Assembly (NCBI GenBank): GCA_001793895.1
Contig: MGIT01000001.1
Coordinates: forward strand, 106,508-170,507
DNA: 64,000 nucleotides
Origin: Candidatus Wolfebacteria bacterium RIFOXYB1_FULL_54_12
GTDB taxonomy: Bacteria > Patescibacteriota > Minisyncoccia > UBA6257 > UBA9933
Direction: 5' to 3'
Shown here: one piece after another, positions 7,849 through 48,608 of the stretch
Layout: every line of letters starts with the position of its first letter
Numbering within the stretch: position 1 is the first letter of the stretch
Translations under genes and position numbers: made by a program
Notes under the pieces: generated by a model
Databases searched by the model: none
Told to the model about the DNA's origin: nothing
The model's input: only the letters and a program-made list of their open reading frames with translations

Positions 7849-7922
7849 GGTGCCGCGGGAGGGAGTTGAACCCCCGACGCTTGCCTCTTCAGGGCAACGC
7901 TCTACCGCTGAGCTACCGCGGC
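7849..7922 (-). tRNA. tRNA-Phe (GAA)
   Basis: Reverse complement reads GCCGCGGTAGCTCAGCGGTAGAGCGTTGCCCTGAAGAGGCAAGCGTCGGGGGTTCAACTCCCTCCCGCGGCACC. The anticodon loop is cTGAAga. Confidence 0.85.
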
Positions 7923-7998
7923 TTATACACCTATTCAAGATGTGCAATCATTATACATGGTTGGAATTTTTTTTCAATCCCAATCCCCTGTTATTGGT

Positions 7999-8033
7999 TA
8001 TAGGTTATTAGTTATTGGTTATCTTAGTCGGAG
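7999..8033. repeat. degenerate heptamer tandem tract (GGTTATN)n
   Basis: gttattggttataggttattagttattggttat. Confidence 0.6.
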
Positions 8034-8037
8034 AGCC

Positions 8038-8108
8038 GGGAATCGAACCCGGACCATATGCTCCCAAAGCATACATACTACCACTATACTACTCTCCGTT
8101 TGACAACT
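8038..8108 (-). tRNA. tRNA-Pro (TGG)
   Basis: Reverse complement reads CGGAGAGTAGTATAGTGGTAGTATGTATGCTTTGGGAGCATATGGTCCGGGTTCGATTCCCGGCTCTCCGA. The anticodon loop is ttTGGga. Confidence 0.8.
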
Positions 8109-15439: not shown

Positions 15440-15470
15440 TTTCTTTCAGAGCTGTGCCATCCCCGCGCTC

Positions 15471-15533
15471 TGTCATTCCCGCGGAGGCGGGAATCTATTT
15501 AATACTGGATTCCCGCCTCCGCAGGGATGATAC
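15471..15533. repeat. TGTCATTCC nested-palindrome element: composite of two A-modules with a 13 bp spacer; the right end is degenerate
   Basis: tgtcattcccgcggaggcgggaatc tatttaatactgg attcccgcctccgcagggatga. Confidence 0.8.
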
Positions 15534-15563
15534 CGTCTCTAATTAATACATTACTCAGCGCAT

Positions 15564-19170: not shown

Positions 19171-19223
19171 GCCTGCTCAAAAAATAACTATACACTAAGT
19201 ATATCCGACAACGCCCAACAAAA

Positions 19224-19264
19224 CAAAAACCATGCATTAAAATGCATGGTTTTTGTTTTTGTGG
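19224..19264 (-). terminator. rho-independent terminator, copy 1 of a duplicated hairpin
   Basis: aaaaaccatgcatt-aaa-atgcatggttttt gtttttgtgg. Confidence 0.6.
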
Positions 19265-19408
19265 TGTTTGTTTGAAAAAGTCAGAACCCATTTTGAGAAA
19301 GATCCCTAACCGCTCCGCTCGGGGTGCGGCGGAAAAAGAAAAAAAAAATTAGGGAGGCGGGAAGAATCCCGCGCCGTCCGAGTTAAAAAATTGGCACTGG
19401 GCGAATTT

Positions 19409-21829
19409 CTAATAAGTCGAATAGGCGTAGTCAAACACGGCATGAGCTACTGTCTCTAAACTTTTAGCACTACATTTATCGAGCGTATCGCCAGTCGTAT
19501 GATATGGCGGGTATTCAAAATCAATCAACAGGAAACTCGGAATTCCAGCTCGATTGAGCGGGGTGTGATCATCTTGGACACTTTGCCCAACCTTATCTTG
19601 AAAAACGTGGCTGTCCACTTTTTGCGCAATACTCCAAAATGCGTCCGCTTGAGACTGGGCATTTTGCACGGATGATTGCTCCTTGTAAATTCTCAAGTCT
19701 TTATCGCACACCATATCAAGAACAAGTGCGGATACCGGTATATTATTCCCATAAAGTTCGCTCAAATGTTCGGAAAAATAAGTAGAACCGAGAGGTCTCC
19801 AATTGCTATAATCACTGCCTTGATTTATATCTCCCTCTTCTCCATCAAAGAAAACGATGTCCACGCCAACACTCGGTATCACATGAGAATTGCCGAGTAT
19901 CCGCGCTAATTCCACAAGGACGGCAACACCCGAAGCAGAGTCGTTGCCCCCTGGCACTGGTTGATCTTTGTATACGTGATCCTTATCCGCAAGTTTTTTA
20001 CTGTCATAATGTGTCGCTAAAATAATGCGCCGTTCTTGGGTTGGGTATAGACGGCCTATGATATTCGATAATTTATGGATTTTACCGTCTGTCCCTTTGT
20101 AATCCCACGATTGTGTAATTACTTCGTTGGTTTGTTCTTTCATCTCCGCAATTAGAAATTTCTGCACGTTTTCATGCCCGGGTGCGCTCATGTGGCGCGG
20201 CCCATACCTTAGTTGTTGGTTTATCACGGCAAGCATTTCGTTGCCATCAATAAACGGTTTTTCCTTAAAAGTACGCCGGAGAACTTCGGACGTTAAGTAC
20301 TCAACCGGAGAAAAATTGTCGGTGAGAATTGGGTATGGAGACAAATTAAATCTGTCCAAGTTGATAACTTTATTTCGAAGCGAGCTAATGATTGAGTTCT
20401 CATTTTGCAGAATTGAAGCCGCGCTCAAATCAATTTTTTTATTACCATTCCATCCAACCAAAATAATATTTTGGGAATCTGTTTTTCCGGGAGTTTCAAC
20501 CGCAAAAAAATAACTATTTGGAAAAACACTTTGAAAAGTTTTTATCTCCGCAAAAATAAGAGATGGCTCTTGTCTTGATAAATCTCCGATTAAATTAGCG
20601 ATAAACAATCCATCGTCAGATAATTTCTCTTTTGCGATGGTAAAAAATTCCTGCGTTGTAAAGTGAGCAGGAATGGAAAAAAGAGAATGGTACGCATCGC
20701 TAAATATAAAATCATATTTTTTATTCGAATCCCAAAGCAGGCGACGACCATCTTCAGTATAATTGTATAGATTTGAATTGTCTTCTACGGCAAAATATTC
20801 TTTTGCTAATGCCAATAACGATGGTTCAATTTCTGAAACATCGAGTGTCGCGTTTGGCAACTCCGCTAAAAGGGCCTTCGGTATAGAATATGCGCCACCG
20901 CCTATAACTAAAGCATTTCGTACGTCCGGCTTGAAAACTTTGTAGAGAGAATAGTATTTCGTGTATTCATAAACGAGATCGGCCGGGTTATCCGAATCGA
21001 GAAACATCGCACCGGAACCACTCCGATCCTGTTGAAAAAATCTTGTCGGCCTGCTTTCAAACATACCATCGTAGATGGTGATTTTTTCGTAAATACCATC
21101 TTTGCTGTACAATACATCGCCTTTTGTTTGCTGAACCGCAACAATGGTAATAAGGGCTAAAGTGACAACGGCAACCAAAGACTGGGTTAGGCGTTTTTTG
21201 TCAAAACCAAATACCGTAAGTGGGATAAATCCGAGAAGGAAGAGAACAACTCCTGTGGCAATAAAAATATGGTCTATGCCAAAATTAGGTATAAGCACAA
21301 AACCCGCAAGTAGACTGCCAATGATACTCCCCAGAGTAGACCAAAAAAATATTTTACCCGAAACACTTCCCACTCCCTGCTCTGGTGCTTGAAGACTCTG
21401 TAATTTTATAGCATAGGGCGACAAAGTGCCGAGCAATAACGCAGGAACAAGGAACAGCAGCAAAGAAGAGATCAGTGGTCCGCTTGTAAGTGAAAGATTT
21501 TTGCTTAAAATTGGAAGAATTATCAAACCAAAAAAATGAAATACAAGGACAAGAAGACCGCTTACGAGAATTATCCCGAAGAACCACCGTAACGATGGGT
21601 GACGATCTGCAAATTTTCCGCCCACATAATATCCTATGCTAAGAGCTGCGAGTATAACACTTATTATACTTGATACAGTAAAAATTGTGTTTCCATAGTG
21701 AGGCGAAAGGACACGGACGGCAACGACTTCAATAATCAAAACACACGCCCCAGTGATAAATACTGAGATTGGCAGCAAATTTTGCTTTAAAAATTTGTTC
21801 ATGTATTTAATCATGGTAGCAGTTTGCAT
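19409..21829 (-). CDS. fusion protein: polytopic membrane domain plus spermidine/spermine synthase-like methyltransferase fold plus C-terminal M28 zinc peptidase domain
   Basis: 806 aa. The N-terminus has about 8 TM segments. The ALVIGGGAYSIPKALLAELPNATLDVSEIEPSLLALAKEYF segment is spermidine-synthase-like. The C-terminus has GGNDSASGVAVLVELARIL and VFFDGEE (M28 metal ligands). Confidence 0.55.
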   Translation of the reverse strand: MQTATMIKYMNKFLKQNLLPISVFITGACVLIIEVVAVRVLSPHYGNTIFTVSSIISVILAALSIGYYVGGKFADRHPSLRWFFGIILVSGLLVLVFHFFGLIILPILSKNLSLTSGPLISSLLLFLVPALLLGTLSPYAIKLQSLQAPEQGVGSVSGKIFFWSTLGSIIGSLLAGFVLIPNFGIDHIFIATGVVLFLLGFIPLTVFGFDKKRLTQSLVAVVTLALITIVAVQQTKGDVLYSKDGIYEKITIYDGMFESRPTRFFQQDRSGSGAMFLDSDNPADLVYEYTKYYSLYKVFKPDVRNALVIGGGAYSIPKALLAELPNATLDVSEIEPSLLALAKEYFAVEDNSNLYNYTEDGRRLLWDSNKKYDFIFSDAYHSLFSIPAHFTTQEFFTIAKEKLSDDGLFIANLIGDLSRQEPSLIFAEIKTFQSVFPNSYFFAVETPGKTDSQNIILVGWNGNKKIDLSAASILQNENSIISSLRNKVINLDRFNLSPYPILTDNFSPVEYLTSEVLRRTFKEKPFIDGNEMLAVINQQLRYGPRHMSAPGHENVQKFLIAEMKEQTNEVITQSWDYKGTDGKIHKLSNIIGRLYPTQERRIILATHYDSKKLADKDHVYKDQPVPGGNDSASGVAVLVELARILGNSHVIPSVGVDIVFFDGEEGDINQGSDYSNWRPLGSTYFSEHLSELYGNNIPVSALVLDMVCDKDLRIYKEQSSVQNAQSQADAFWSIAQKVDSHVFQDKVGQSVQDDHTPLNRAGIPSFLLIDFEYPPYHTTGDTLDKCSAKSLETVAHAVFDYAYSTY

Positions 21830-21887
21830 ATGATTAGTCTATCCGCCATTGTATTTTTTAAGCGAGGACTATTTTCAAAATATTTCA

Positions 21888-21934
21888 CAAAAACAAAGAC
21901 CACGCATTTTAATGCATGGTTTTTGTTTTTGTGG
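21888..21934 (-). terminator. rho-independent terminator, copy 2 of the duplicated hairpin; it abuts the tRNA-Ala 3' end
   Basis: aaaaacaaagaccacgcatt-ttaa-tgcatggtttttgtttttgtgg. Confidence 0.55.
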
Positions 21935-22002
21935 ACCTAGGCGGAATCGGACCGCCGTCTCAGCAATGCGAATGCCGTGTTCTACCACTAGACTATAGGC
22001 CC
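21932..22002 (-). tRNA. tRNA-Ala (CGC)
   Basis: Reverse complement reads GGGCCTATAGTCTAGTGGTAGAACACGGCATTCGCATTGCTGAGACGGCGGTCCGATTCCGCCTAGGTCCA. G3:U70 is present. The anticodon loop is ttCGCat. Confidence 0.8.
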
Positions 22003-26665: not shown

Positions 26666-27760
26666 TCAACGCATAACCCCACCTCCGATGACAACTCCAT
26701 CGGCATCGTAAAATACGGCAGATTGTCCCACGGCAACAAACCGTTGCGGTTCATCGAATTGCAACCGATAGGCCTCACCATCGGCGACCAATGTCGCCGC
26801 AAACAACGGCTGGCGATAGCGGATGCGCACCATGACCGGAATGGACTTCGGGGGGGCTATGGCGCACATGCCCATGAAATTAAGTTCAACAAGGCCAATA
26901 TCCGCACATGCCTGCTCAAGCAAATGATCATCATGCGAAACCGTGATGACATTGCTTGCGACATCTTTTTTGACCACAAAATACGCCGGTCCGCCCCCGA
27001 CATGCAATCCGTGCCGTTGCCCGATGGTATAAAACCACACACCCTCGTGCTCGCCCACCTTCACTCCGTCGACGGTAACAATGTCGCCCTTCCGTTTCGG
27101 CAGATACTGTTCCAAAAATTCACGCAACGATATCTTCCCCAAAAAACAAATACCTTGGGAATCTTTTTTCTGCGCCGTCGGAAGTCCCGCGGCCGCCGCA
27201 ATCTCCCTGATCTTCGGCTTTTCATAGGCACCGATCGGAAACAAACAATGCCGCAGTTGCTCCTGCGTAAGCGTCCACAAAAAATAACTCTGATCTTTAT
27301 TCCCATCAATCCCTTTCTGTAATGAGTAAGTAGTTTCCTGTTTTTTGTTATCGGTTATAGGTTGTAGGTTATAGGTTGCGCTTCGCGCATAATGCCCCGT
27401 CGCCACATAATCAGCCCCCAACGCAAGCGCCTTTTGCAAAAACACGCCAAACTTGATTTCCTTGTTGCACATCACATCCGGGTTCGGGGTAATGCCGTTG
27501 CGATACCCGTTGACCAAATATTCCACCACGAATTGTTTGTATTCTTCTTCAAGATCGATGACATAAAACGGGATGCCCAAATGTTCGGCAACGCGCCGCG
27601 CATCTTCCGCTTCGCGGTCTTGGCATCCGTCCATGTTATATCCTTTAATGAACGCGCCGATCACATCATAAGTCCCCTGCTCGCGCAACAAAAAAGCGGC
27701 GACACTCGAATCGACGCCGCCCGACATCATGACAAATACTTTTGGCTTTAAACCATTCAT
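26666..27760 (-). CDS. mnmA: tRNA-specific 2-thiouridylase MnmA; an in-frame heptamer-repeat insertion encodes SATYNLQPITDN
   Basis: PP-loop MMSGGVDSSV, catalytic Cys residues, and a C-terminal beta-barrel. The insertion maps to 27347..27380. Confidence 0.9.
   Translation of the reverse strand: MNGLKPKVFVMMSGGVDSSVAAFLLREQGTYDVIGAFIKGYNMDGCQDREAEDARRVAEHLGIPFYVIDLEEEYKQFVVEYLVNGYRNGITPNPDVMCNKEIKFGVFLQKALALGADYVATGHYARSATYNLQPITDNKKQETTYSLQKGIDGNKDQSYFLWTLTQEQLRHCLFPIGAYEKPKIREIAAAAGLPTAQKKDSQGICFLGKISLREFLEQYLPKRKGDIVTVDGVKVGEHEGVWFYTIGQRHGLHVGGGPAYFVVKKDVASNVITVSHDDHLLEQACADIGLVELNFMGMCAIAPPKSIPVMVRIRYRQPLFAATLVADGEAYRLQFDEPQRFVAVGQSAVFYDADGVVIGGGVMR
27347..27380. repeat. degenerate heptamer tract (GGTTATN)n, intragenic and in frame in mnmA
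   Basis: gttatcggttataggttgtaggttataggttgcg. Confidence 0.7.
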
Positions 27761-29009: not shown

Positions 29010-29026
29010 GTATTGTTTATAATCTC

Positions 29027-29088
29027 TGTCATTCCCGCGGAGGCGGGAATCTATTTAATACTGGATTCCCGCCTCCGCGGGAATGACA
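29027..29088. repeat. TGTCATTCC nested-palindrome element: canonical perfect composite
   Basis: tgtcattcccgcggaggcgggaatc tatttaatactgg attcccgcctccgcgggaatgaca. The terminal inverted repeats are perfect. Confidence 0.9.
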
Positions 29089-29106
29089 ACCTTTCTGATT
29101 CACTTA

Positions 29107-30843
29107 TTACAAATCCCCCTTCTCGCTCTTGTGTGGTTGCTTTGGTCGTTCTTCGGGGGTAGCTTCTTTTCTTTTTTGTAATGATTCTTCGATTGCCTTT
29201 TTCAGGTCATCAATATTGACCGCCTTTTTCTCGAACACATGTTTTGGCCTATCCTGCGGCATACTGCGAAGTCTATCGTCCATCGCTGGGCGATGCGGCA
29301 CAGGGCTGGCGCCACGATCTCCGCTAAATGGCCGCACGCTCGTCGGCCTATCGGTCAACGGCCCGTCCTGGGATGCCCGCGCAAACGACGGTCTGTCCTG
29401 CCTGCCCGCCGTAGTGTTAGCGGAGGAGGAATCCGCCGGCTGGCGGACGAAGGGTTTACGCTCGAAAGAAGGCTTCGGCGCTTGCGCACGAGGGGTTAGA
29501 GTCGAGCTCAACGACCGCTCGTCACGGCGCATAACCTTATCTGCCATGGATGTCTTACCCGACCCCATATATTCCTTGGCGATCATTTCATCCACCAACG
29601 CCTTAGGCATGGAATAATTTCTGCGGGAGTTTTCAATAATGACATCCTCGTAATTCGGCTGCGGGATTGGATACGGCGGCAAGGTCTCTGCCGAAAATGG
29701 TCTCGATGCCTGGCCGTCAACCAACAATTTAAGGTAAATATGCCGGTTTGACAAGCCGATCATATCTTGCGGCGTAAACTCGGGTTCGAATTCCTTTTCA
29801 AAAAATACGGCGTCGATGGCGCCAACGCGAAACATAGCCAAGGTGCCAATGTTGCCGACGATTGCCTCTGCAAGCCCTTCTTCTTTTTTAAGCTGATCGA
29901 CATACTGGTGGGCCAGCGTCAAGCCAAGTCCGTATTTGCGCGCCTCGGCGAAGATCTTCGTAAATGAACCGGTAGAAAAGTTTTGAAACTCGTCGATGTA
30001 CAAAAAGAACGGCCTGCGTTCGCTCTCGGGAATATCGATGCGGCTCATGGCGGCAAGCTGGATTTTGGTAATGATCATGGCGCCGAGCAATGCGGAATTG
30101 TCTTCGCCGAGACGGCCCTGCGAAAGATTGCAGATCAATATCTTGCCTTCATCCATTGCCTTGCGCATGTCGATGGTCGACTTCGGCTGGCCGATGATGT
30201 TACGGATGACCGGATTGGAACTGAACTGCCCTACCTTGTTCTGCAACGGTGCAATGGCCTCGGTCATGAACTTGTCGGTATATTTTGCAAATTCGTTTTC
30301 CCAGAACGACTTAATGACCGGGTCCTTTAAATTGGAAACGACCTTCAGGCGGTACTCTTTCTCCGCAAGCATGCGCATAATACTCAGTAAGGTCGTTCCC
30401 GGATATTCCAAAAGCGCCAACAGGGTATTGTTCAAAATATATTCCATGCGCGCAGACCATGCGTCCACCCAGATTTTTTGAAACACACCCATCACCGCCG
30501 ACGCGACAAGGTGCGCATGTTCGTCACCGACGCGTTCAAGCGGATTAAATCCGACCGGATTTTCGATATCGGCCGGATTGACATAAATGACATCCTTGAT
30601 GCGGTCTTCTGGCACATGCTTAAGCAACTCTTCGACGAATTCGCCATGCGGGTCGAGCACGGCAACACCAAATCCGTTCTTGATGTCGTTGATCATCAAG
30701 TTTTTCATCATGGTGGTCTTACCCGTGCCGCTCTTCCCGACGATGTACATATGCCGCAGGCGGTCGTTCATTTTGATGCCAAAATTAACGCTTTGATTGC
30801 GAAAATTCGTCTTTGCAAAAATTGAAATTTCTTTGTTGCTCAT
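29107..30843 (-). CDS. TraG/TraD/VirD4-family (type IV secretion coupling-protein-like) P-loop ATPase with a low-complexity C-terminal tail
   Basis: Walker A (IVGKSGTGKTT), Walker B-like (FLYIDEFQNF), and a C-terminal Pro/Ser/Arg-rich tail of about 150 aa. The alternative start at 30858 (MTNSPM) lies inside the repeat TIR. Confidence 0.6.
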   Translation of the reverse strand: MSNKEISIFAKTNFRNQSVNFGIKMNDRLRHMYIVGKSGTGKTTMMKNLMINDIKNGFGVAVLDPHGEFVEELLKHVPEDRIKDVIYVNPADIENPVGFNPLERVGDEHAHLVASAVMGVFQKIWVDAWSARMEYILNNTLLALLEYPGTTLLSIMRMLAEKEYRLKVVSNLKDPVIKSFWENEFAKYTDKFMTEAIAPLQNKVGQFSSNPVIRNIIGQPKSTIDMRKAMDEGKILICNLSQGRLGEDNSALLGAMIITKIQLAAMSRIDIPESERRPFFLYIDEFQNFSTGSFTKIFAEARKYGLGLTLAHQYVDQLKKEEGLAEAIVGNIGTLAMFRVGAIDAVFFEKEFEPEFTPQDMIGLSNRHIYLKLLVDGQASRPFSAETLPPYPIPQPNYEDVIIENSRRNYSMPKALVDEMIAKEYMGSGKTSMADKVMRRDERSLSSTLTPRAQAPKPSFERKPFVRQPADSSSANTTAGRQDRPSFARASQDGPLTDRPTSVRPFSGDRGASPVPHRPAMDDRLRSMPQDRPKHVFEKKAVNIDDLKKAIEESLQKRKEATPEERPKQPHKSEKGDL

Positions 30844-30990: not shown

Positions 30991-31030
30991 AATTTCGTGC
31001 GATACGCACACCATAATAATGCATTCTAAT

Positions 31031-31123
31031 TCCGTTATCCGTTATCGGTCATCCGTTTTCGTTTTCGGTTATAGGTTATTAGTTGTAGGTTTTAGGTTAT
31101 TGGTTATCAGTCATTGGTTATTC
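31031..31123. repeat. degenerate heptamer tract (GGTTATN)n, about 13 units
   Basis: ccgttatccgttatcggtcatccgttttcgttttcggttataggttattagttgtaggttttaggttattggttatcagtcattggttat. Confidence 0.7.
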
Positions 31124-32461
31124 TATCGGCAAATTCTCCGGAGGCTCGCCTTTCTTTGCCTCGATACGGCGCATACTCGGCGCGGTAACCAACGATGACG
31201 GAACATGGTAAAGCGTAGCCAACTCTTCTATGGAAAAGACGGGAGCCTTCTTTATCATGATCCGCTGGCGGTATGCAAAGAACATTGCCCTCTTTTTCAA
31301 AAATTCCTGATGCTTTTTCCACGCCGGAAACAGCCATGCCTTGAAACCTTTCGGCGGGTTTACCGACGTATCCCTGTTTGGCTTGAACGAATTGATATGC
31401 TGGGAACCGAATTGCTTGAATGAGCCGATGATCCCCCCTATATAGGACTTATGAAACGTTTCCTGCCGATCGATAAACACTGCACGCACGCTCACTTCAT
31501 AGCACAGTTTGGATATTTTTCCTTCAATGCCTTCAAGTACTTCCTTTTCAGAAAAGCTCAAAGACGCAATCGTCTTGGGTGGAGCGTCGGATTTTTTCGG
31601 CGGCTCGGGCCATTCCGGAGTGCTTATGAATACAAGAAAAAAATTCTTGATCCACATGACAAGATGATCAAATATGCTCAATTTAGGAGCGACCTTCACC
31701 TCACGGCCTAACATTTTATCGACGATCGCCTGTCCCTTCTTTTTGTAGTCGCTCGTTTTTTCGCCGGTCGGCTTGGATATATATTGCACGAAGATCATTT
31801 CATTCTCGCGGAGCTTCGACATGGTTTCCAAAATGACCGTAAGCGGATCAAGTCGTTGCTCTTCCTCTTTCTCTTCAAAATAGGCGTATGTCTTAATCGG
31901 ATATGCGCTGTCTTTGTCGAGAACCATATCGACGCCCCATACATCATAAACATCGTTGGGCAACATCATCGGCAAGAAGCTGAGATAGTCTTCGACAAGG
32001 GCTATTTCCGCGGCGGGATATTGCGCAAACAATGCGGACTCCACCAAATTGCGGTGCTCGGCAGGTACGCGCACATAAAAATATACACCGCCGCTTCGCC
32101 CGACCATTTCAAACGAAAGGGCGTTTTGAACCTTCCCTTTGATATTTTCATCCCACCATTTGATCTCGCCGGCATAGGTGCCATGTACCGTGGCAAACAC
32201 CTGTTCCATGGATTTCGGACTGCGCAAATTTTCCTTGGGGATGCGCAATTCAAGCACGACCCACTTTTGCGCCTTCTTTGCCGCTTTTTTGTTCGAGTCG
32301 ATGTACAGGTCCCAAAGATAGAACGCCAAAACAACCGGAACGACGGCCCACCATACGTACGAAAAGACCTCGCCAATGCTTTGCGCAATGCCAAGGATGA
32401 TATTCTGCACGACCGGTGTGATCGAAAAATAGTCCAGTAGAAAGTCTGAAATGTTTGCCAT
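31118..32461 (-). CDS. hypothetical membrane-anchored protein encoded directly upstream of the TraG-like ATPase
   Basis: 447 aa with an N-terminal TM (VVQNIILGIAQSIGEVFSYVWWAVVPVVLAFYLW). The soluble domain has no recognizable motif. Confidence 0.45.
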   Translation of the reverse strand: MANISDFLLDYFSITPVVQNIILGIAQSIGEVFSYVWWAVVPVVLAFYLWDLYIDSNKKAAKKAQKWVVLELRIPKENLRSPKSMEQVFATVHGTYAGEIKWWDENIKGKVQNALSFEMVGRSGGVYFYVRVPAEHRNLVESALFAQYPAAEIALVEDYLSFLPMMLPNDVYDVWGVDMVLDKDSAYPIKTYAYFEEKEEEQRLDPLTVILETMSKLRENEMIFVQYISKPTGEKTSDYKKKGQAIVDKMLGREVKVAPKLSIFDHLVMWIKNFFLVFISTPEWPEPPKKSDAPPKTIASLSFSEKEVLEGIEGKISKLCYEVSVRAVFIDRQETFHKSYIGGIIGSFKQFGSQHINSFKPNRDTSVNPPKGFKAWLFPAWKKHQEFLKKRAMFFAYRQRIMIKKAPVFSIEELATLYHVPSSLVTAPSMRRIEAKKGEPPENLPIE

Positions 32462-32524
32462 GTATCTCTTTTAGTATATCGCAAAATGGTCCAACAAAAA
32501 AGAGACACTCGTCTCTTTTTTGCA

Positions 32525-32575
32525 TTCCGTTATCCGTTATCCGTTTTCGGTTATTGGTTATTGGTTATCCGTTAT
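32525..32575. repeat. degenerate heptamer tract (GGTTATN)n
   Basis: tccgttatccgttatccgttttcggttattggttattggttatccgttatt. Confidence 0.7.
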
Positions 32576-33619
32576 TTACGCAACATGATATGTTCCGTTG
32601 TCCAATCGTTTGAAATATTTTTTGTTCTGCAAGTTAAGCAGAATGGTGTTTTCCTTCAAGAATCGCTGAGAGGAAACCAACTGCACGACCTCATGCTGGG
32701 CAAGCGGGCCATTGTCAACAAGCACCTGCTTGATGACGTCCTTTGCCGTACCCGGGAAAAATCCATGCTCGGTCAAACCATACATACCGCGACCTACAAG
32801 GACAAATCGTCCATCCTTGATCAATTCATTATGGATCGTCTGTGCATACACCGGCTTTTTATCGAACCCGACCGAATTGATCGTAGTGGCGATATCGCGG
32901 AAGTGCATCGGCTTGCCATGCTTGCGCAAGATAAGATATGCCTTTGCGCGCGCGGTCTTCGGCGTGATCTCTTCCCAATGGGAAAGACCAAAGTCGGAAT
33001 ACGGATTCACGGAAAACTGTTTCGAGATGCCGAGGTAGTTCATGCCGACGGCGCGGTCGACGTTCGAAGCGGTCGCAACCTGCTTGAAGTGCGGATCGAA
33101 TTGACCCTTGAAGACTATTTCTTCTTTCTTGCCGCCAAAGAACTTGACCGCCTTTTCAATGAAAGTCTCTGCCTTTTTGACGACAGCCTTGTCCGAAGCC
33201 CAAAACCCATAGGAATGATCGCTTTCAGCATGGTACATCGGCTCGCCGGCAATGCGGAAAAGGAAGCGGAACTGATACTTGTTCACGGTCGCATCTTTCA
33301 ACACCGTGCGCATGTCTTCGACAAAATCATCTTCCTTGCGAACGCCGCCCAAGGCAACGAGTTGCTCCTTGGCGATTTGCACCAGGCGATCGCCGCCTGC
33401 ATCGCTAAAACGTTCCCGCGCCAAACGAAGCCCTTCTGCCTCTATCTGGCGCACGCGCTCACGGGTAATGCCGTTGCGTTCGCCGAGTTCCTGCAGGGTC
33501 TTTTCCTGTCCATCGCGAAGTCCAAAACGTTCCTCGACTATTTCTCGCTGTCGAGCGGACAATGCGTGCGTTACCTGTTCGATGATATTGCCTGTGTTCT
33601 TCATAAGAGTTGAATCCAA
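32576..33619 (-). CDS. hypothetical protein with an N-terminal sigma-70 region-4-like HTH
   Basis: LSARQREIVEERFGL...TLQELGERNGITRERVRQIEAEGLRLAR, followed by a domain of about 270 aa with no known motif. Confidence 0.45.
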   Translation of the reverse strand: MDSTLMKNTGNIIEQVTHALSARQREIVEERFGLRDGQEKTLQELGERNGITRERVRQIEAEGLRLARERFSDAGGDRLVQIAKEQLVALGGVRKEDDFVEDMRTVLKDATVNKYQFRFLFRIAGEPMYHAESDHSYGFWASDKAVVKKAETFIEKAVKFFGGKKEEIVFKGQFDPHFKQVATASNVDRAVGMNYLGISKQFSVNPYSDFGLSHWEEITPKTARAKAYLILRKHGKPMHFRDIATTINSVGFDKKPVYAQTIHNELIKDGRFVLVGRGMYGLTEHGFFPGTAKDVIKQVLVDNGPLAQHEVVQLVSSQRFLKENTILLNLQNKKYFKRLDNGTYHVA

Positions 33620-37665: not shown

Positions 37666-37700
37666 AATAACCTATGACCCATAACCAACAACCCATAACA
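37666..37700. repeat. degenerate heptamer tract (reverse orientation)
   Basis: aataacctatgacccataaccaacaacccataac. Confidence 0.6.
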
Positions 37701-37865: not shown

Positions 37866-38825
37866 TTACTTAATACCCCTCTTAAGCACTGTTGTCAATT
37901 TTTTCAATTGCGCATCATAGGTGGCCTTGTCGCGCGCTTCCACATTTAACCGAACTAACGATTCGGTATTGGAAAGCCGCACGTTGAACCACCAATCGGG
38001 ATCGGCAAAGTCCATGGCAATGCCATCGATCTTCGATATAGCCTTTGCGTCTTTTTTATATGTCCGTTCTATGTGCGCAAACAATCCGGCGGGCGCAATG
38101 GAAGACGAAACAGGGACATTGATCTCCGGCGACCGATACGTTTCCGGCAAGAGGTCTACGAATTCCGACAGCGCATACGGCAATCGCGCAAGCGCGTTCA
38201 GCACCGCGACGGCCGCCATGATGCCCGAATCGCAATAAAAAAAGTTTTTAAAATAATAGTGCCCCGATCGCTCGCACCCGAATTCGGCGCCATTTTTCCG
38301 CATGGCGTGTTTCATGGCGTAATGCCCTGTCTTGCCCGCAATGCGTTTTGCGCCAAGCAGCGACTCGTCCCGAGTGAAATCGAGGGATTGCCGACGCACA
38401 AGCCATCCGTCTTTTGCATCGGTCACAAATCGATTCGGACGCAAGGACCACAGCAACAGATACGCCACGACATCCGGGTCCACAAAACGACCCTTGTCGT
38501 CGACGAAGAAAACACGGTCTCCATCCGCATCAAAGATGACACCTATATCGGCACCATTGGAAACAACGCTCTTTTGTAACGCGCGCAACGAACCGGCATG
38601 CAACGGATCCGGCGCATGATTCGGGAAGTTCCCATCAGGCTGACCATTCAAAATAGCCCATTCCCTTTTTTCCTTTTTCCTTTTTCCTTTTTCCCTGAGT
38701 GCCTCCATGATCGGCCCTGTAGCCCCGCTGGAACAATCAAAAACAACATCAAGCGTTTTTGCATCGTCGCGCAAAAACCCGTTCAAAAACGAAACATATT
38801 CATCGACAAAGGGTGAGGTATTCAT
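37866..38825 (-). pseudogene. phosphohexomutase (PMM/PGM family) lacking the N-terminal catalytic domain I; it contains an in-frame (TTTTCC)4 tract
   Basis: 319 aa covering only domains II-IV (GVIFDADGDRVFFVDDKGRF). No active-site Ser loop is encoded upstream. The insertion encodes GKRKKEKRE. Confidence 0.5.
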
Positions 38826-46339: not shown

Positions 46340-46393
46340 TTATACCCTTTGGTGATAGAATATATCCACGATCAGGCGGTTATCGGGTTTCAT
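46340..46393 (-). pseudogene. duplicated 3' terminal fragment (17 codons plus stop) of the SDR gene; left direct repeat of the HEPN insert
   Basis: Reverse complement encodes MKPDNRLIVDIFYHQRV*. The SDR C-terminus is MKPDNRLIVDTFYHQRV*. 50 of 54 nt are identical to 47039..47092. Confidence 0.7.
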
Positions 46394-47038: not shown

Positions 47039-47770
47039 TTATACCCTTTGATGATAGAATGTATCCACGATTAGGCGGTTATCGGGTTTCATTTCTCCGA
47101 TGACCGTCTTGTAAATGACCTCCGCGACATCTGCGGGCGTATGGTGCGCCTCTGTGCCTTTGAACAGTTCTTTGAACATGTTCGTCCCTACTGACCCGGG
47201 GGTAATGGTGATCACATCGATCCCCGACTGCACCAGCTCGGCCGACAACGCCTGCGTAAACGCGATCACGCCGGCCTTGGTCGCCGAATAGACGGCAAGC
47301 TCGGGAATGCCACAGAGTCCCGCTCCCGATGAAATATTAATGATGCATTTTCGTTTCACGGTACAACCGTCATGATCGGTTTCCGCAACGCCGGTATCCA
47401 TGCTCTTCAAAGCCTCCTGCGTAACAATAAACATGCCGCCCAGGTTCACATTGACCATGCTTTGCCACTCGGCTTCCGTCGTATCCGCAAATCGCTTGCG
47501 CTGGGCAACGCCCGCATTGTTGATAAGCACATCGATGCCGCCAAAACGCTTCTTCGCTTCCGCAATGGCAAGGGCGACCTGCGCCCGATCGCACACATCC
47601 CCTTCTATGACCAATGTGCGATCAATAGGAAGCGTCATCGCTTCCGAGCTTGTCGCACCATGGGAATAAATGACAACATTCGCACCTTCGGCAATGAACT
47701 TTTTCGCGGTTTCCAATCCGATGCCCGTCGCCCCACCGGTAATGAATACTGTCTTTCCTTTGATATCCAT
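47039..47770 (-). CDS. short-chain dehydrogenase/reductase (SDR) family oxidoreductase
   Basis: MDIKGKTVFITGGATGIGLETAKKF (TGxxxGxG), NNAG, and a YxxxK-like motif. The listed start at 47842 lies inside the repeat TIR. Confidence 0.8.
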   Translation of the reverse strand: MDIKGKTVFITGGATGIGLETAKKFIAEGANVVIYSHGATSSEAMTLPIDRTLVIEGDVCDRAQVALAIAEAKKRFGGIDVLINNAGVAQRKRFADTTEAEWQSMVNVNLGGMFIVTQEALKSMDTGVAETDHDGCTVKRKCIINISSGAGLCGIPELAVYSATKAGVIAFTQALSAELVQSGIDVITITPGSVGTNMFKELFKGTEAHHTPADVAEVIYKTVIGEMKPDNRLIVDTFYHQRV

Positions 47771-47796
47771 AATGGTATTAGTATAGCATAACTTTT

Positions 47797-47824
47797 TGTC
47801 ATTCCGGCGGAGGCCGGAATGACA
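47797..47824. repeat. TGTCATTCC-family minimal single-module element
   Basis: tgtcattccggcggaggccggaatgaca. Confidence 0.85.
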
Positions 47825-47836
47825 ACATAAGAAGTT

Positions 47837-47904
47837 TGTCATCCTGAACTCGTTTCAGGATCTCATGGTAGTGCGATGAGATTCCGGCCTCCGCCGGAAT
47901 GACA
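47837..47904. repeat. TGTCATTCC nested-palindrome element (composite, 18 bp spacer)
   Basis: tgtcatcctgaactcgtttcaggatc tcatggtagtgcgatgag attccggcctccgccggaatgaca. Confidence 0.85.
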
Positions 47905-48012: not shown

Positions 48013-48046
48013 CCCTGTTATTAGTTATAGGTTGCTGGTTGTTAGC
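48013..48046. repeat. degenerate heptamer tract
   Basis: cctgttattagttataggttgctggttgttagcc. Confidence 0.5.
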
Positions 48047-48051
48047 CTGAA

Positions 48052-48088
48052 GTCAAATAAAAAACGCCTATGGCGTTTTTTATTTGAC
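48052..48088 (-). terminator. rho-independent terminator (37 bp perfect palindrome) overlapping the rplK stop codon
   Basis: gtcaaataaaaaacgcc-tat-ggcgttttttatttgac. Confidence 0.65.
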
Positions 48089-48502
48089 TTCGATTCCCAT
48101 CGATCGGGCTGCGCCCTTGATGATCTTTGCGGCCTGCTCGACGTCTTCAGTGTTAAGATCCACCATTTTCTTTTCGGCGATCTCACGCACCTGCGCCTCG
48201 GTAACGGTTCCCACCTTGATCTTCAGCGGATTCGCCGATCCCTTGGCGACGCCTGCCGCTTTGCGCAACAGATCGGATGCCGGGGAGGTCTTCAGCTTGA
48301 AGTCGAAGGTTCGATCTTCATAGATGTTGATCTCTGCGGGAATGATGCTTCCGACCATATCTTTGGTCGCTTCGTTGAACTGCTGGCAGAACTGCGCGAT
48401 ATTCACGCCGTGCTGACCCAATGCCGGACCAATCGGAGGAGCAGGGTTTGCCGCGCCACCCGGGATCTGAAGCTTAATGATAGTTTTGATTGCTTTTGCC
48501 AT
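48080..48502 (-). CDS. rplK: 50S ribosomal protein L11
   Basis: [35 protein letters not shown]. Confidence 0.9.
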
Positions 48503-48504
48503 AC

Positions 48505-48608
48505 TGTATATGAATTATGAATACTAAATAATGGATTATGGTAAGGAATATGTCAAGAATCTCATCTGCATTCATTCATTATTCATGATTCATGCTTCTT
48601 GATTCACG
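48505..48608. promoter_or_regulatory. long imperfect inverted repeat (ATGAAT/ATTCAT-rich) in the nusG-rplK intergenic region; candidate rplK leader or promoter region
   Basis: atgaattatgaatactaaataatggattatgg ... gcattcattcattattcatgattcatgcttcttgattcac. Confidence 0.25.

Follow-up and report, generated by a model that had tools for sequence, protein, structure and literature searches.

A 64-kb stretch of the genome of Candidatus Wolfebacteria bacterium RIFOXYB1_FULL_54_12 (contig MGIT01000001.1; "the window" hereafter means the whole of this stretch) carries degenerate tandem tracts of a 7-nt unit, GGTTATN, at several sites, one of them in frame inside mnmA, the gene for the tRNA 2-thiouridine(34) synthase. 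What creates such tracts, do they serve a purpose, and how can a unit whose length is not a multiple of three persist in the middle of a gene? We consider it likely that they are slippage-born heptanucleotide repeats of the long simple-sequence repeat (LSSR)/STRR class, the intergenic ones being recent and probably near-neutral, and that the mnmA copy is an old expansion which became fixed in a permissive hairpin after the loss of its stop codons. The repeat class itself is already known and is now seen in a candidate-phyla-radiation bacterium, while the finding that heptamers remodel MnmA loops time and again is new and can be tested.

Heptamer tracts in the window

An initial annotation of this DNA had listed GGTTAT-type heptamer tracts at six sites, all of which we recovered (Table 1). 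Tandem Repeats Finder reported period-7 arrays of 4.4-7.1 copies at 7990-8022, 27347-27377, 31031-31122 and 32526-32575, and a regular expression demanding at least three NGTTNNN units matched exactly the six named sites and nothing else in the 64 kb. Furthermore, GTTATNNGTTATNNGTT with at most one mismatch had 23 matches in the window, whereas 100 dinucleotide-preserving shuffles averaged 0.07. The units (GGTTATN, CCGTTAT and GGTTGTN) are 7 nt long and stand head to tail, and five of the six tracts read GGTTAT on the plus strand. The copy that had been placed at 37666-37700 does consist of tandem heptamers but is inverted, with ATAACC on the plus strand at 37667-37700; likewise, the mnmA tract given as 27347-27380 is present and in frame, but its repeat footprint is larger, comprising six units at 27338-27379.

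A lag-based scan that compared periods 4 to 15 (tract score of at least 12) found five period-7 tracts in the window and at most one of any other period. Two period-7 tracts with units other than GGTTAT, at 38667-38694 and 48569-48606, had been overlooked in the initial annotation. Arrays of at least three 7-nt units, an excess of period 7, and a unit family that is dispersed and mostly intergenic are among the marks of an LSSR/STRR-like class, and all three are found here. The 38667 tract lies within the GKRKKEKRE segment of a PGM/PMM-like open reading frame (ORF; 37866-38825, minus strand), and the alignment of this protein with the solved PGM structure 6NN2 has a 5-residue gap at that segment. 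As a separate observation, the alignment of the ORF covers residues 182-466 of the enzyme (468 residues) and no others, so that domain I appears to be missing.

Some tracts resemble one another in more than their unit. The leader said to be common to the 31031 and 32525 tracts, GCATTC...CCGTTATCCGTTAT, is indeed there, at 31022 and 32522, and a 60-nt stretch of the two tracts is 77% identical, with the unit variants in matching order (CCGTTAT, CCGTTAT, CCGTTTT, CGGTTAT, TGGTTAT). Similarly, the 7989 and 48013 tracts both open with CCCTGTTATT-GTTATAGGTT. Such likenesses, and the fact that six of the eight tracts come from one unit family, speak for a dispersed element that spreads from one site to another through template switching or ectopic recombination, or that some templated process adds. 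We nevertheless regard dispersal as quite unlikely. The tracts have no terminal repeats, target-site duplications or associated gene, their units are degenerate and their lengths range from 34 to 93 nt, arrays of one 7-mer are expected to be highly similar by construction, and other Patescibacteria carry many different heptamer units within a single locus.

The in-frame tract of mnmA

The identity of the gene is supported by the Pfam domains PF03054, PF20259 and PF20258, by an alignment with the solved MnmA structures 2HMA and 9HLV (E-value 2e-89, residues 4-362), and by the conserved motifs SGGVDS, PDVMCN and GICF. As the initial annotation had read it, the tract lies in frame and encodes SATYNLQPITDN. 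On the coding strand the whole block is GCAACCT ATAACCT ACAACCT ATAACCG ATAACAA AAAACAG (42 nt, 14 codons), translated as A-T-Y-N-L-Q-P-I-T-D-N-K-K-Q. Successive units are read as xxx-ACC-N, AT-AAC-CN and A-xAA-CCN, and the two units in the third phase have CAA and AAA where the family consensus gives an in-frame TAA. The proposal that the in-frame copy is under constraint can thereby be put more sharply: every third unit must lose its TAA, and has.

The absence of a counterpart in conserved MnmA was also correctly called, as the segment is missing from the solved structures and from some close orthologs. In 2HMA and 9HLV a 10-residue gap stands exactly opposite TYNLQPITDN, and an AlphaFold model of the window MnmA (mean pLDDT 89) places the block at the tip of a beta-hairpin (strands 125-132 and 142-149), where residues 131-140 (mean pLDDT 64) are among the two lowest-scoring blocks. 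Given the gap in the solved structures and the hairpin-tip position in the model, the heptamer block is a 10-12-residue insertion in a surface hairpin and not a conserved element of MnmA.

No MnmA more than 59% identical to that of the window was found among GTDB representative genomes; close relatives were taken from metagenome contigs, which gave eight close-relative loci (~97 kb). An alignment of MnmA orthologs had been named as a check, and it is informative. Three relatives with 77-85% MnmA identity (L085, L086 and L087) have the same block, aligned codon for codon and without indels, and CAA stands at the critical unit in all four sequences, the window included. Because the codon-wise alignment is free of indels and CAA is kept in all four, the tract is orthologous among the window and these relatives and now changes by point substitution only. 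The site looks different in other members of the clade: the loop is built of GAAATAC or GAGATAC units in L089 and L092 and of GGAAAAN in L091, the insert is decayed in L090, and there is none in the ortholog L088/P0004. The unit found in the L091 gene (10001-11182) is that of the window's PGM tract, not that of the window's own mnmA.

Within the population, six strain contigs carry the tract allele of the window unchanged. The 90% protein cluster of the window MnmA has six other members that cover the loop, of which five encode the window peptide and the sixth an in-frame variant loop. Frameshifted mnmA alleles were absent from the six strain contigs and the cluster members, all consensus assemblies that could hide minority alleles. 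We also observed that one mnmA of the cluster (P0132) joins a window-type N-terminal part to the loop VRITDNQQPITNNGGGEKK of an 85%-identical relative, a mosaic which suggests recombination between mnmA loop alleles in the population.

These data bear on the idea, raised in the initial annotation, that the tracts act by slipped-strand, phase-variation-like changes. Of this idea the slippage origin fits, both with the period-7 excess and with a longer allele of the 31031 tract described below, but there is no evidence of switching. For contingency loci, in which one-unit slippage would toggle mnmA or its neighbours, it can be said that a 7-nt unit shifts the frame and that one length variant was found at 31031-31123. 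However, the mnmA tract is imperfect, lies mid-gene (codons 127-140 of 364), is invariant in the six strain contigs and has no indels relative to the relatives at 77-85% protein identity. The polymorphic 31031 tract, in turn, lies 3' of a gene, and, apart from the inverted 37667 copy, whose allele is the same in all three contigs covering it, none of the tracts occupies a 5' coding region or the space between promoter elements. We thus hold contingency loci to be extremely improbable and, on both counts that define it, placement and switching alleles, reject phase variation of mnmA.

The history that we favour for mnmA is a different one. An old six-unit expansion (42 nt) would have landed in the tip of a surface beta-hairpin, would have survived because the two units with an in-frame TAA mutated to CAA and AAA, and would now be held in frame by purifying selection with change by point substitution only. 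On this reading, the copy shows in a clean natural case how a repeat with a non-triplet unit becomes a permanent protein insertion, namely with units in a multiple of three and with mutation of those units that bring an in-frame stop.

Placement and variation of the intergenic tracts

Six of the eight period-7 tracts lie in non-coding DNA, which makes up 14.5% of the window (P = 2e-4), and four of these six either overlap the 3' end of the gene upstream or begin no more than 3 nt from it (P = 3.5e-5 for random placement within spacers). Read along the gene strand, the unit becomes ATAACCN and includes TAA; the 7989, 31031, 32525 and 48569 tracts have gene-strand stops in all three frames, the 48013 tract in two frames only. 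Tracts in the forward orientation stand 63-172 nt from the next start (172 nt to that of a type IV secretion system (T4SS)-coupling-like gene for the 31031 tract, 66 nt to that of rplK for the 48569 tract), and only the inverted 37667 copy is close to one, at 8 nt. Since TAA falls in all three frames, ATAACCN tracts would be tolerated only outside ORFs; most of them sit directly after gene ends.

An alternative is that (AUAACCN)n works as a functional 3'-end element. It might be a backup stop for ribosomes that read through or have shifted frame, keep a distance ahead of terminator hairpins, or be the place where Rho loads or an RNase cuts. The abutment on gene ends and the stops in two or three frames agree with such a role, as does the sense RNA, which is C-rich and G-poor and for the most part unfolded (0 to -7.8 kcal/mol, no better than shuffles for three of four tracts). 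The 32525 tract lies between a stop codon and a terminator-like hairpin, and among the metagenome matches listed 23 of 76 intergenic GGTTAT tracts are within 10 nt of a gene end. In those matches, however, abutment is seen in both orientations, a comparison that is itself confounded because a tract's own stop codons terminate ORFs. Moreover, in one of the abutting cases the preceding gene is that of a tRNA, which is not translated; the inverted 37667 copy occupies a 5' leader; the hairpin near the 48013 tract precedes it instead of following; and the only comparable orthologous spacer, in L091, has no tract, so that gene has no need of one. A streamlined genome that deletes non-functional spacer would likewise leave a tract flush with the stop. 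On balance, we judge a 3'-end function unlikely.

We consider it very unlikely that the tracts are double-stranded DNA binding arrays for a lineage-specific protein, nucleoid-associated or of the helix-turn-helix type, to which a 7-bp spacing would present a motif around the helix; protein-binding arrays had been proposed in the initial annotation. The occurrence of one unit family at several intergenic sites is what such arrays could look like, yet the tract-free L091 spacer again speaks against them, one copy, lying within a gene, has a sequence moulded by codon constraints, the unit also occurs in unrelated organisms, and no candidate binding protein was identified.

Several further candidates were tried and set aside. 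As folded RNA or DNA structures the tracts have z-scores mostly near zero (best -2.3, for the 31031 tract), and a CCG/CGG dyad in the 32525 tract reaches z = -1.6. Rfam at gathering thresholds matches only the six tRNAs of the window. A replication origin or DnaA-box cluster was considered for TTATCCGTT; the cumulative GC skew is monotonic across the window, which therefore holds no origin.

Length polymorphism across strains, another check named in the initial annotation, was seen at one site and not elsewhere. A strain contig (L001, 99.7% identical) has a 41-nt (about six-unit) longer allele with repeat units inserted inside the 31031-31123 tract, and the sample it came from also yielded the window allele. 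The other contigs, up to ten per site, have the window allele at all seven covered tracts (every tract except that of the tRNA spacer, 7989-8026), several of them being re-assemblies of the same aquifer samples and all being consensus assemblies, which hide within-population stutter. The strain contigs show that the majority allele is stable, which does not amount to an absence of slippage.

The L091 locus (MnmA 77% identical) is syntenic over the whole region, and its one alignable orthologous spacer, that of the 32525 tract, has no GGTTAT tract. Across the eight close-relative loci there are almost no intergenic period-7 tracts. Seen against these relatives, the intergenic tracts appear to be young and lineage-specific.

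Period 7 and MnmA loops across Patescibacteria

The search for period-7 repeats that the initial annotation had called for was run on the window and on mnmA-flanking loci; it uncovered both the two additional tracts described above and a clear excess of this period. For comparison we used 738 kb of Patescibacteria loci and 660 kb of Firmicutes loci around mnmA, all from GTDB representative genomes. The Patescibacteria loci held 36 period-7 tracts against 0-6 for each other period from 4 to 15, and the Firmicutes loci held none (shuffles, about one). Period 7 is the only enriched tandem-repeat period, both in the window and in the Patescibacteria loci.

Almost half of the Patescibacteria tracts (16/36) lie inside mnmA, though this gene makes up 6.6% of the sequence, at +356 to +424, +741 to +760 and +898 to +974 nt; 11 are in other long ORFs and 9 are intergenic. 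The TGHY-KDQ loop of MnmA measures 17-20 residues, with no lag-7 signal, in all 35 control (Firmicutes-labelled) loci, and 14 to 60 residues in Patescibacteria, where the best lag is 7 in about half. Within the Wolfebacteria clade alone, the first MnmA loop holds one of three unrelated units (ATAACCN, GAAATAC/GAGATAC or GGAAAAN), a decayed tract, or nothing. Part of the enrichment in mnmA is due to shared ancestry, for example of an AAAATTC-type loop inherited within one clade. Even allowing for this, the turnover of heptamer units at one MnmA site is striking.

Two further MnmA loops have in-frame heptamer tracts (+741 to +974 nt; L010, L013-L015, L023, L026, L030), and one of them appears to match residues 251-260 of the window model (mean pLDDT 58). 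Another observation from these loci is that intergenic heptamer tracts are often found in pairs, close together and inverted, for instance AAAACTA... followed by CTTTTAG... (Table 1); from their sequence, such pairs could form long imperfect hairpins.

The recurrence of tracts in the same MnmA loops offers a concrete route by which proteins of the candidate phyla radiation gain their characteristic insertions. It also calls for caution in annotation: such segments are low-complexity inserts driven by the DNA, not conserved functional motifs. A bolder idea, which we put forward tentatively and think rather less likely to be true than false, is that a period-7-specific process in Patescibacteria repeatedly adds new peptides to conserved enzymes, each time at the same surface loops, with MnmA as the clearest target. 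If this reflected recurrent de novo expansion, and not one ancient tract with turnover, heptamer slippage would be a main source of the lineage-specific protein insertions of this radiation, and the lengthened MnmA hairpin might even be under selection.

Relation to known heptamer repeats

Runs of three GGTTATN units were found on at least 120 metagenome contigs with very different GC contents (28% to 71%), which rules out GGTTATN as a lineage-specific unit. Among the matches listed, many contigs also hold plenty of other heptamer arrays, STRR1-like and TAACTGA-like units among them, and a few carry eukaryotic telomere-like CCCTAAA arrays. For Patescibacteria, or the candidate phyla radiation, a literature search on heptamer and simple-sequence repeats returned nothing relevant.

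One obvious comparison is with the STRR repeats of cyanobacteria, whose units, described by Mazel and colleagues in 1990, reportedly read CCCCAGT (STRR1), TTGGTCA (STRR2) and CAACAGT (STRR3). Written as TTGGTTA, the window unit would be one base from STRR2. Both systems consist of 7-nt head-to-tail arrays at many, mostly intergenic loci, with genome-specific unit families and function unknown, and GGTTATN tracts stand together with STRR1-like units on metagenome contigs such as L210, among the matches listed. In contrast to STRR repeats, which as heptanucleotide repeats are documented in Calothrix and Nostoc (PMC4692102), the window tracts reside in the small, non-photosynthetic, ~50% GC genome of a Patescibacteria member, and its arrays are short (4-13 units) and degenerate, with one copy fixed in frame in an essential-type enzyme.

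A second comparison is with the TAACTGA direct repeats of marine Beggiatoaceae, cyanobacteria and Bacteroidetes (MacGregor 2015, PMC4679880). These too are heptamers that give stops in all three frames when in forward orientation, some copies overlap the upstream stop, and rare copies within ORFs encode short peptide inserts at protein peripheries (PMC4679880). Single ATAACTG units, one base from ATAACCN, even stand in the mnmA tracts of L085 and L086. The repeats of the Beggiatoaceae (BOGUAY), however, are mostly a few nt upstream of starts, whereas the window tracts abut 3' ends, and TAACTGA copies within ORFs are reversed, whereas the mnmA copy is forward and was rescued by changes of TAA to CAA and AAA. 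We therefore reject membership in the TAACTGA family, as the window consensus is ATAACCN and its forward tracts are not close upstream of starts.

The intergenic heptamers GGGAATC of Xanthomonas and GGGGAYT of Nostoc (Rehm et al. 2015, PMC4692102) are similar in that heptamers are over-represented specifically, relative to repeats of 4-11 nt, differ in length and sequence between close relatives at the same intergenic positions, and occur in inverted pairs (PMC4692102). Their units are G-rich and capable of forming G-quadruplexes, while GGTTATN/ATAACCN has no G-runs. Contingency loci (Haemophilus tetranucleotides, the 7-bp repeats of hmw1A, the neuO heptanucleotides) likewise have slippage-prone units of a length that is not a multiple of three; yet they are perfect, stand in promoters or 5' coding regions and have on/off alleles in populations, whereas the window units are imperfect, mostly 3' in placement and invariant in the coding copy. 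Finally, the tandem repeats of Borgs, which create new disordered regions in proteins (PMC9879509), resemble the mnmA tract in that tandem duplication at the DNA level writes new low-complexity surface segments into proteins. They differ in being on an archaeal extrachromosomal element and not a bacterial chromosome, and a 7-nt unit additionally needs three units per seven codons and no in-frame stops.

Heptamers are the most over-represented long simple-sequence repeat in many bacteria, and polymerase slippage has been proposed as the cause, ~7 nt being the stretch that a polymerase holds, which would favour slippage (Mrazek 2007, as cited in PMC4679880 and PMC4692102). This over-representation has been known since 2007 and is unexplained, and groundwater Patescibacteria with small genomes add a very different lineage to it. 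The same specificity for period 7, together with units one base from cyanobacterial and Beggiatoaceae families, argues for a shared molecular cause over lineage-specific functions.

Origin of the tracts

Taken together, these observations lead us to infer that strand slippage during replication creates and resizes the tracts, and that in the Patescibacteria lineage slippage, or the retention of its products, may be specific to 7-nt units. Near-neutrality of the intergenic tracts, which we think most likely, is a reading of the same kind. Several points weigh against this account. That six of the eight tracts come from a single unit family is not predicted by random seeding, and neither the leader and variant order shared by the 31031 and 32525 tracts nor the common orientation of five of the six GGTTAT-family tracts follows readily from it. 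The abutment on 3' ends suggests that gene ends may be linked to a seed, to some copying process or to a function. Only a single length variant was seen, with up to ten assemblies per site having identical alleles.

Other features of the window

The window MnmA is identical to OGM93172.1 of Candidatus Wolfebacteria bacterium from Rifle aquifer groundwater, and its ribosomal protein L11 matches the RIFOXYB1/B2 bins. The sequence is ~50% GC with a coding fraction of 85.5%, nearly all genes are on the minus strand, and the GC skew is negative throughout.

Table 1. Heptamer tracts, adjoining genes and other repeats (window coordinates unless a locus is named)
Feature	Position	Strand	Context
Heptamer tract GTTATTG GTTATAG GTTATTA GTTATTG GTTATC	7989..8026	+	0 nt from 3' end of tRNA-Pro
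tRNA-Phe	7849-7922	-	Other flank of the spacer holding the 7989 tract
tRNA-Pro	8027-8098	-	Gene preceding the 7989 tract
mnmA, tRNA 2-thiouridine(34) synthase, 364 aa	26666..27760	-	
In-frame six-unit heptamer block of mnmA	27338..27379	-	Codons 127-140
Longest tract, ~13 units, mixed forms CCGTTAT, CGTTTT, GGTTATN, AGTCATT	31031..31123	+	
DUF8128 ORF	31118-32461	-	Stop codon TAA (31118-31120) is the TAA of the last unit of the 31031 tract
Hairpin plus T-run, read as intrinsic terminator	32497-32522		After the 32525 tract in the sense direction
Seven-unit tract	32525..32575	+	0 nt after TAA stop (32576-32578) of sigma70-r4/HARE-HTH ORF
sigma70-r4/HARE-HTH ORF	32576-33619	-	Upstream gene of the 32525 tract
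Inverted copy, GGTTAT on gene strand	37667..37700	-	8 nt upstream of likely ATG (37658-37656) of RNase-H-like exonuclease gene
Perfect (GGAAAAA)x4 on coding strand, (TTTTTCC)x4 on +	38667..38694	-	In frame, PGM/PMM-like gene
Degenerate tract, four to five units	48013..48046	+	33 nt downstream of rplK, just past hairpin 48048-48085
rplK	48080-48502	-	Long hairpin 48048-48085 at its 3' side
ATTCATG-like period-7 tract	48569..48606	+	Between nusG and rplK, 3 nt after nusG stop (48610)
REP-like hairpins, 36-nt copies	1444, 1678, 15464, 16110, 29020, 45465, 47790, 51532		
REP-like hairpins, further copies	557, 30851, 45342, 47835; 2381, 37742, 45426, 52881		
Inverted heptamer pairs	L013 7863-7953; L015 6037-6098; L030 7487-7559; L044 14494-14559		Other Patescibacteria loci

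Besides the heptamers, REP-like hairpins (TGTCATTCCCGCGGAGGCGGGAATC and its variants) are abundant between the genes of the window; this family is probably the first repeat class of the initial annotation. An 87-nt pair (15468-15554 and 29024-29110) is 87% identical. A low-GC segment at 19195-21945 (0.40 against ~0.50) has a single ORF of 806 aa (19409-21829, minus strand) and is flanked by near-identical palindromic 45-nt elements (19220-19264 and 21890-21934), with a tRNA-Ala at 21931-22002; it may be an inserted segment. Lastly, a 54-nt direct repeat (46340-46393 and 47039-47092, 94% identical) is a copy of the 3' end of a short-chain dehydrogenase gene (47039-47842, minus strand), ~700 nt further along.

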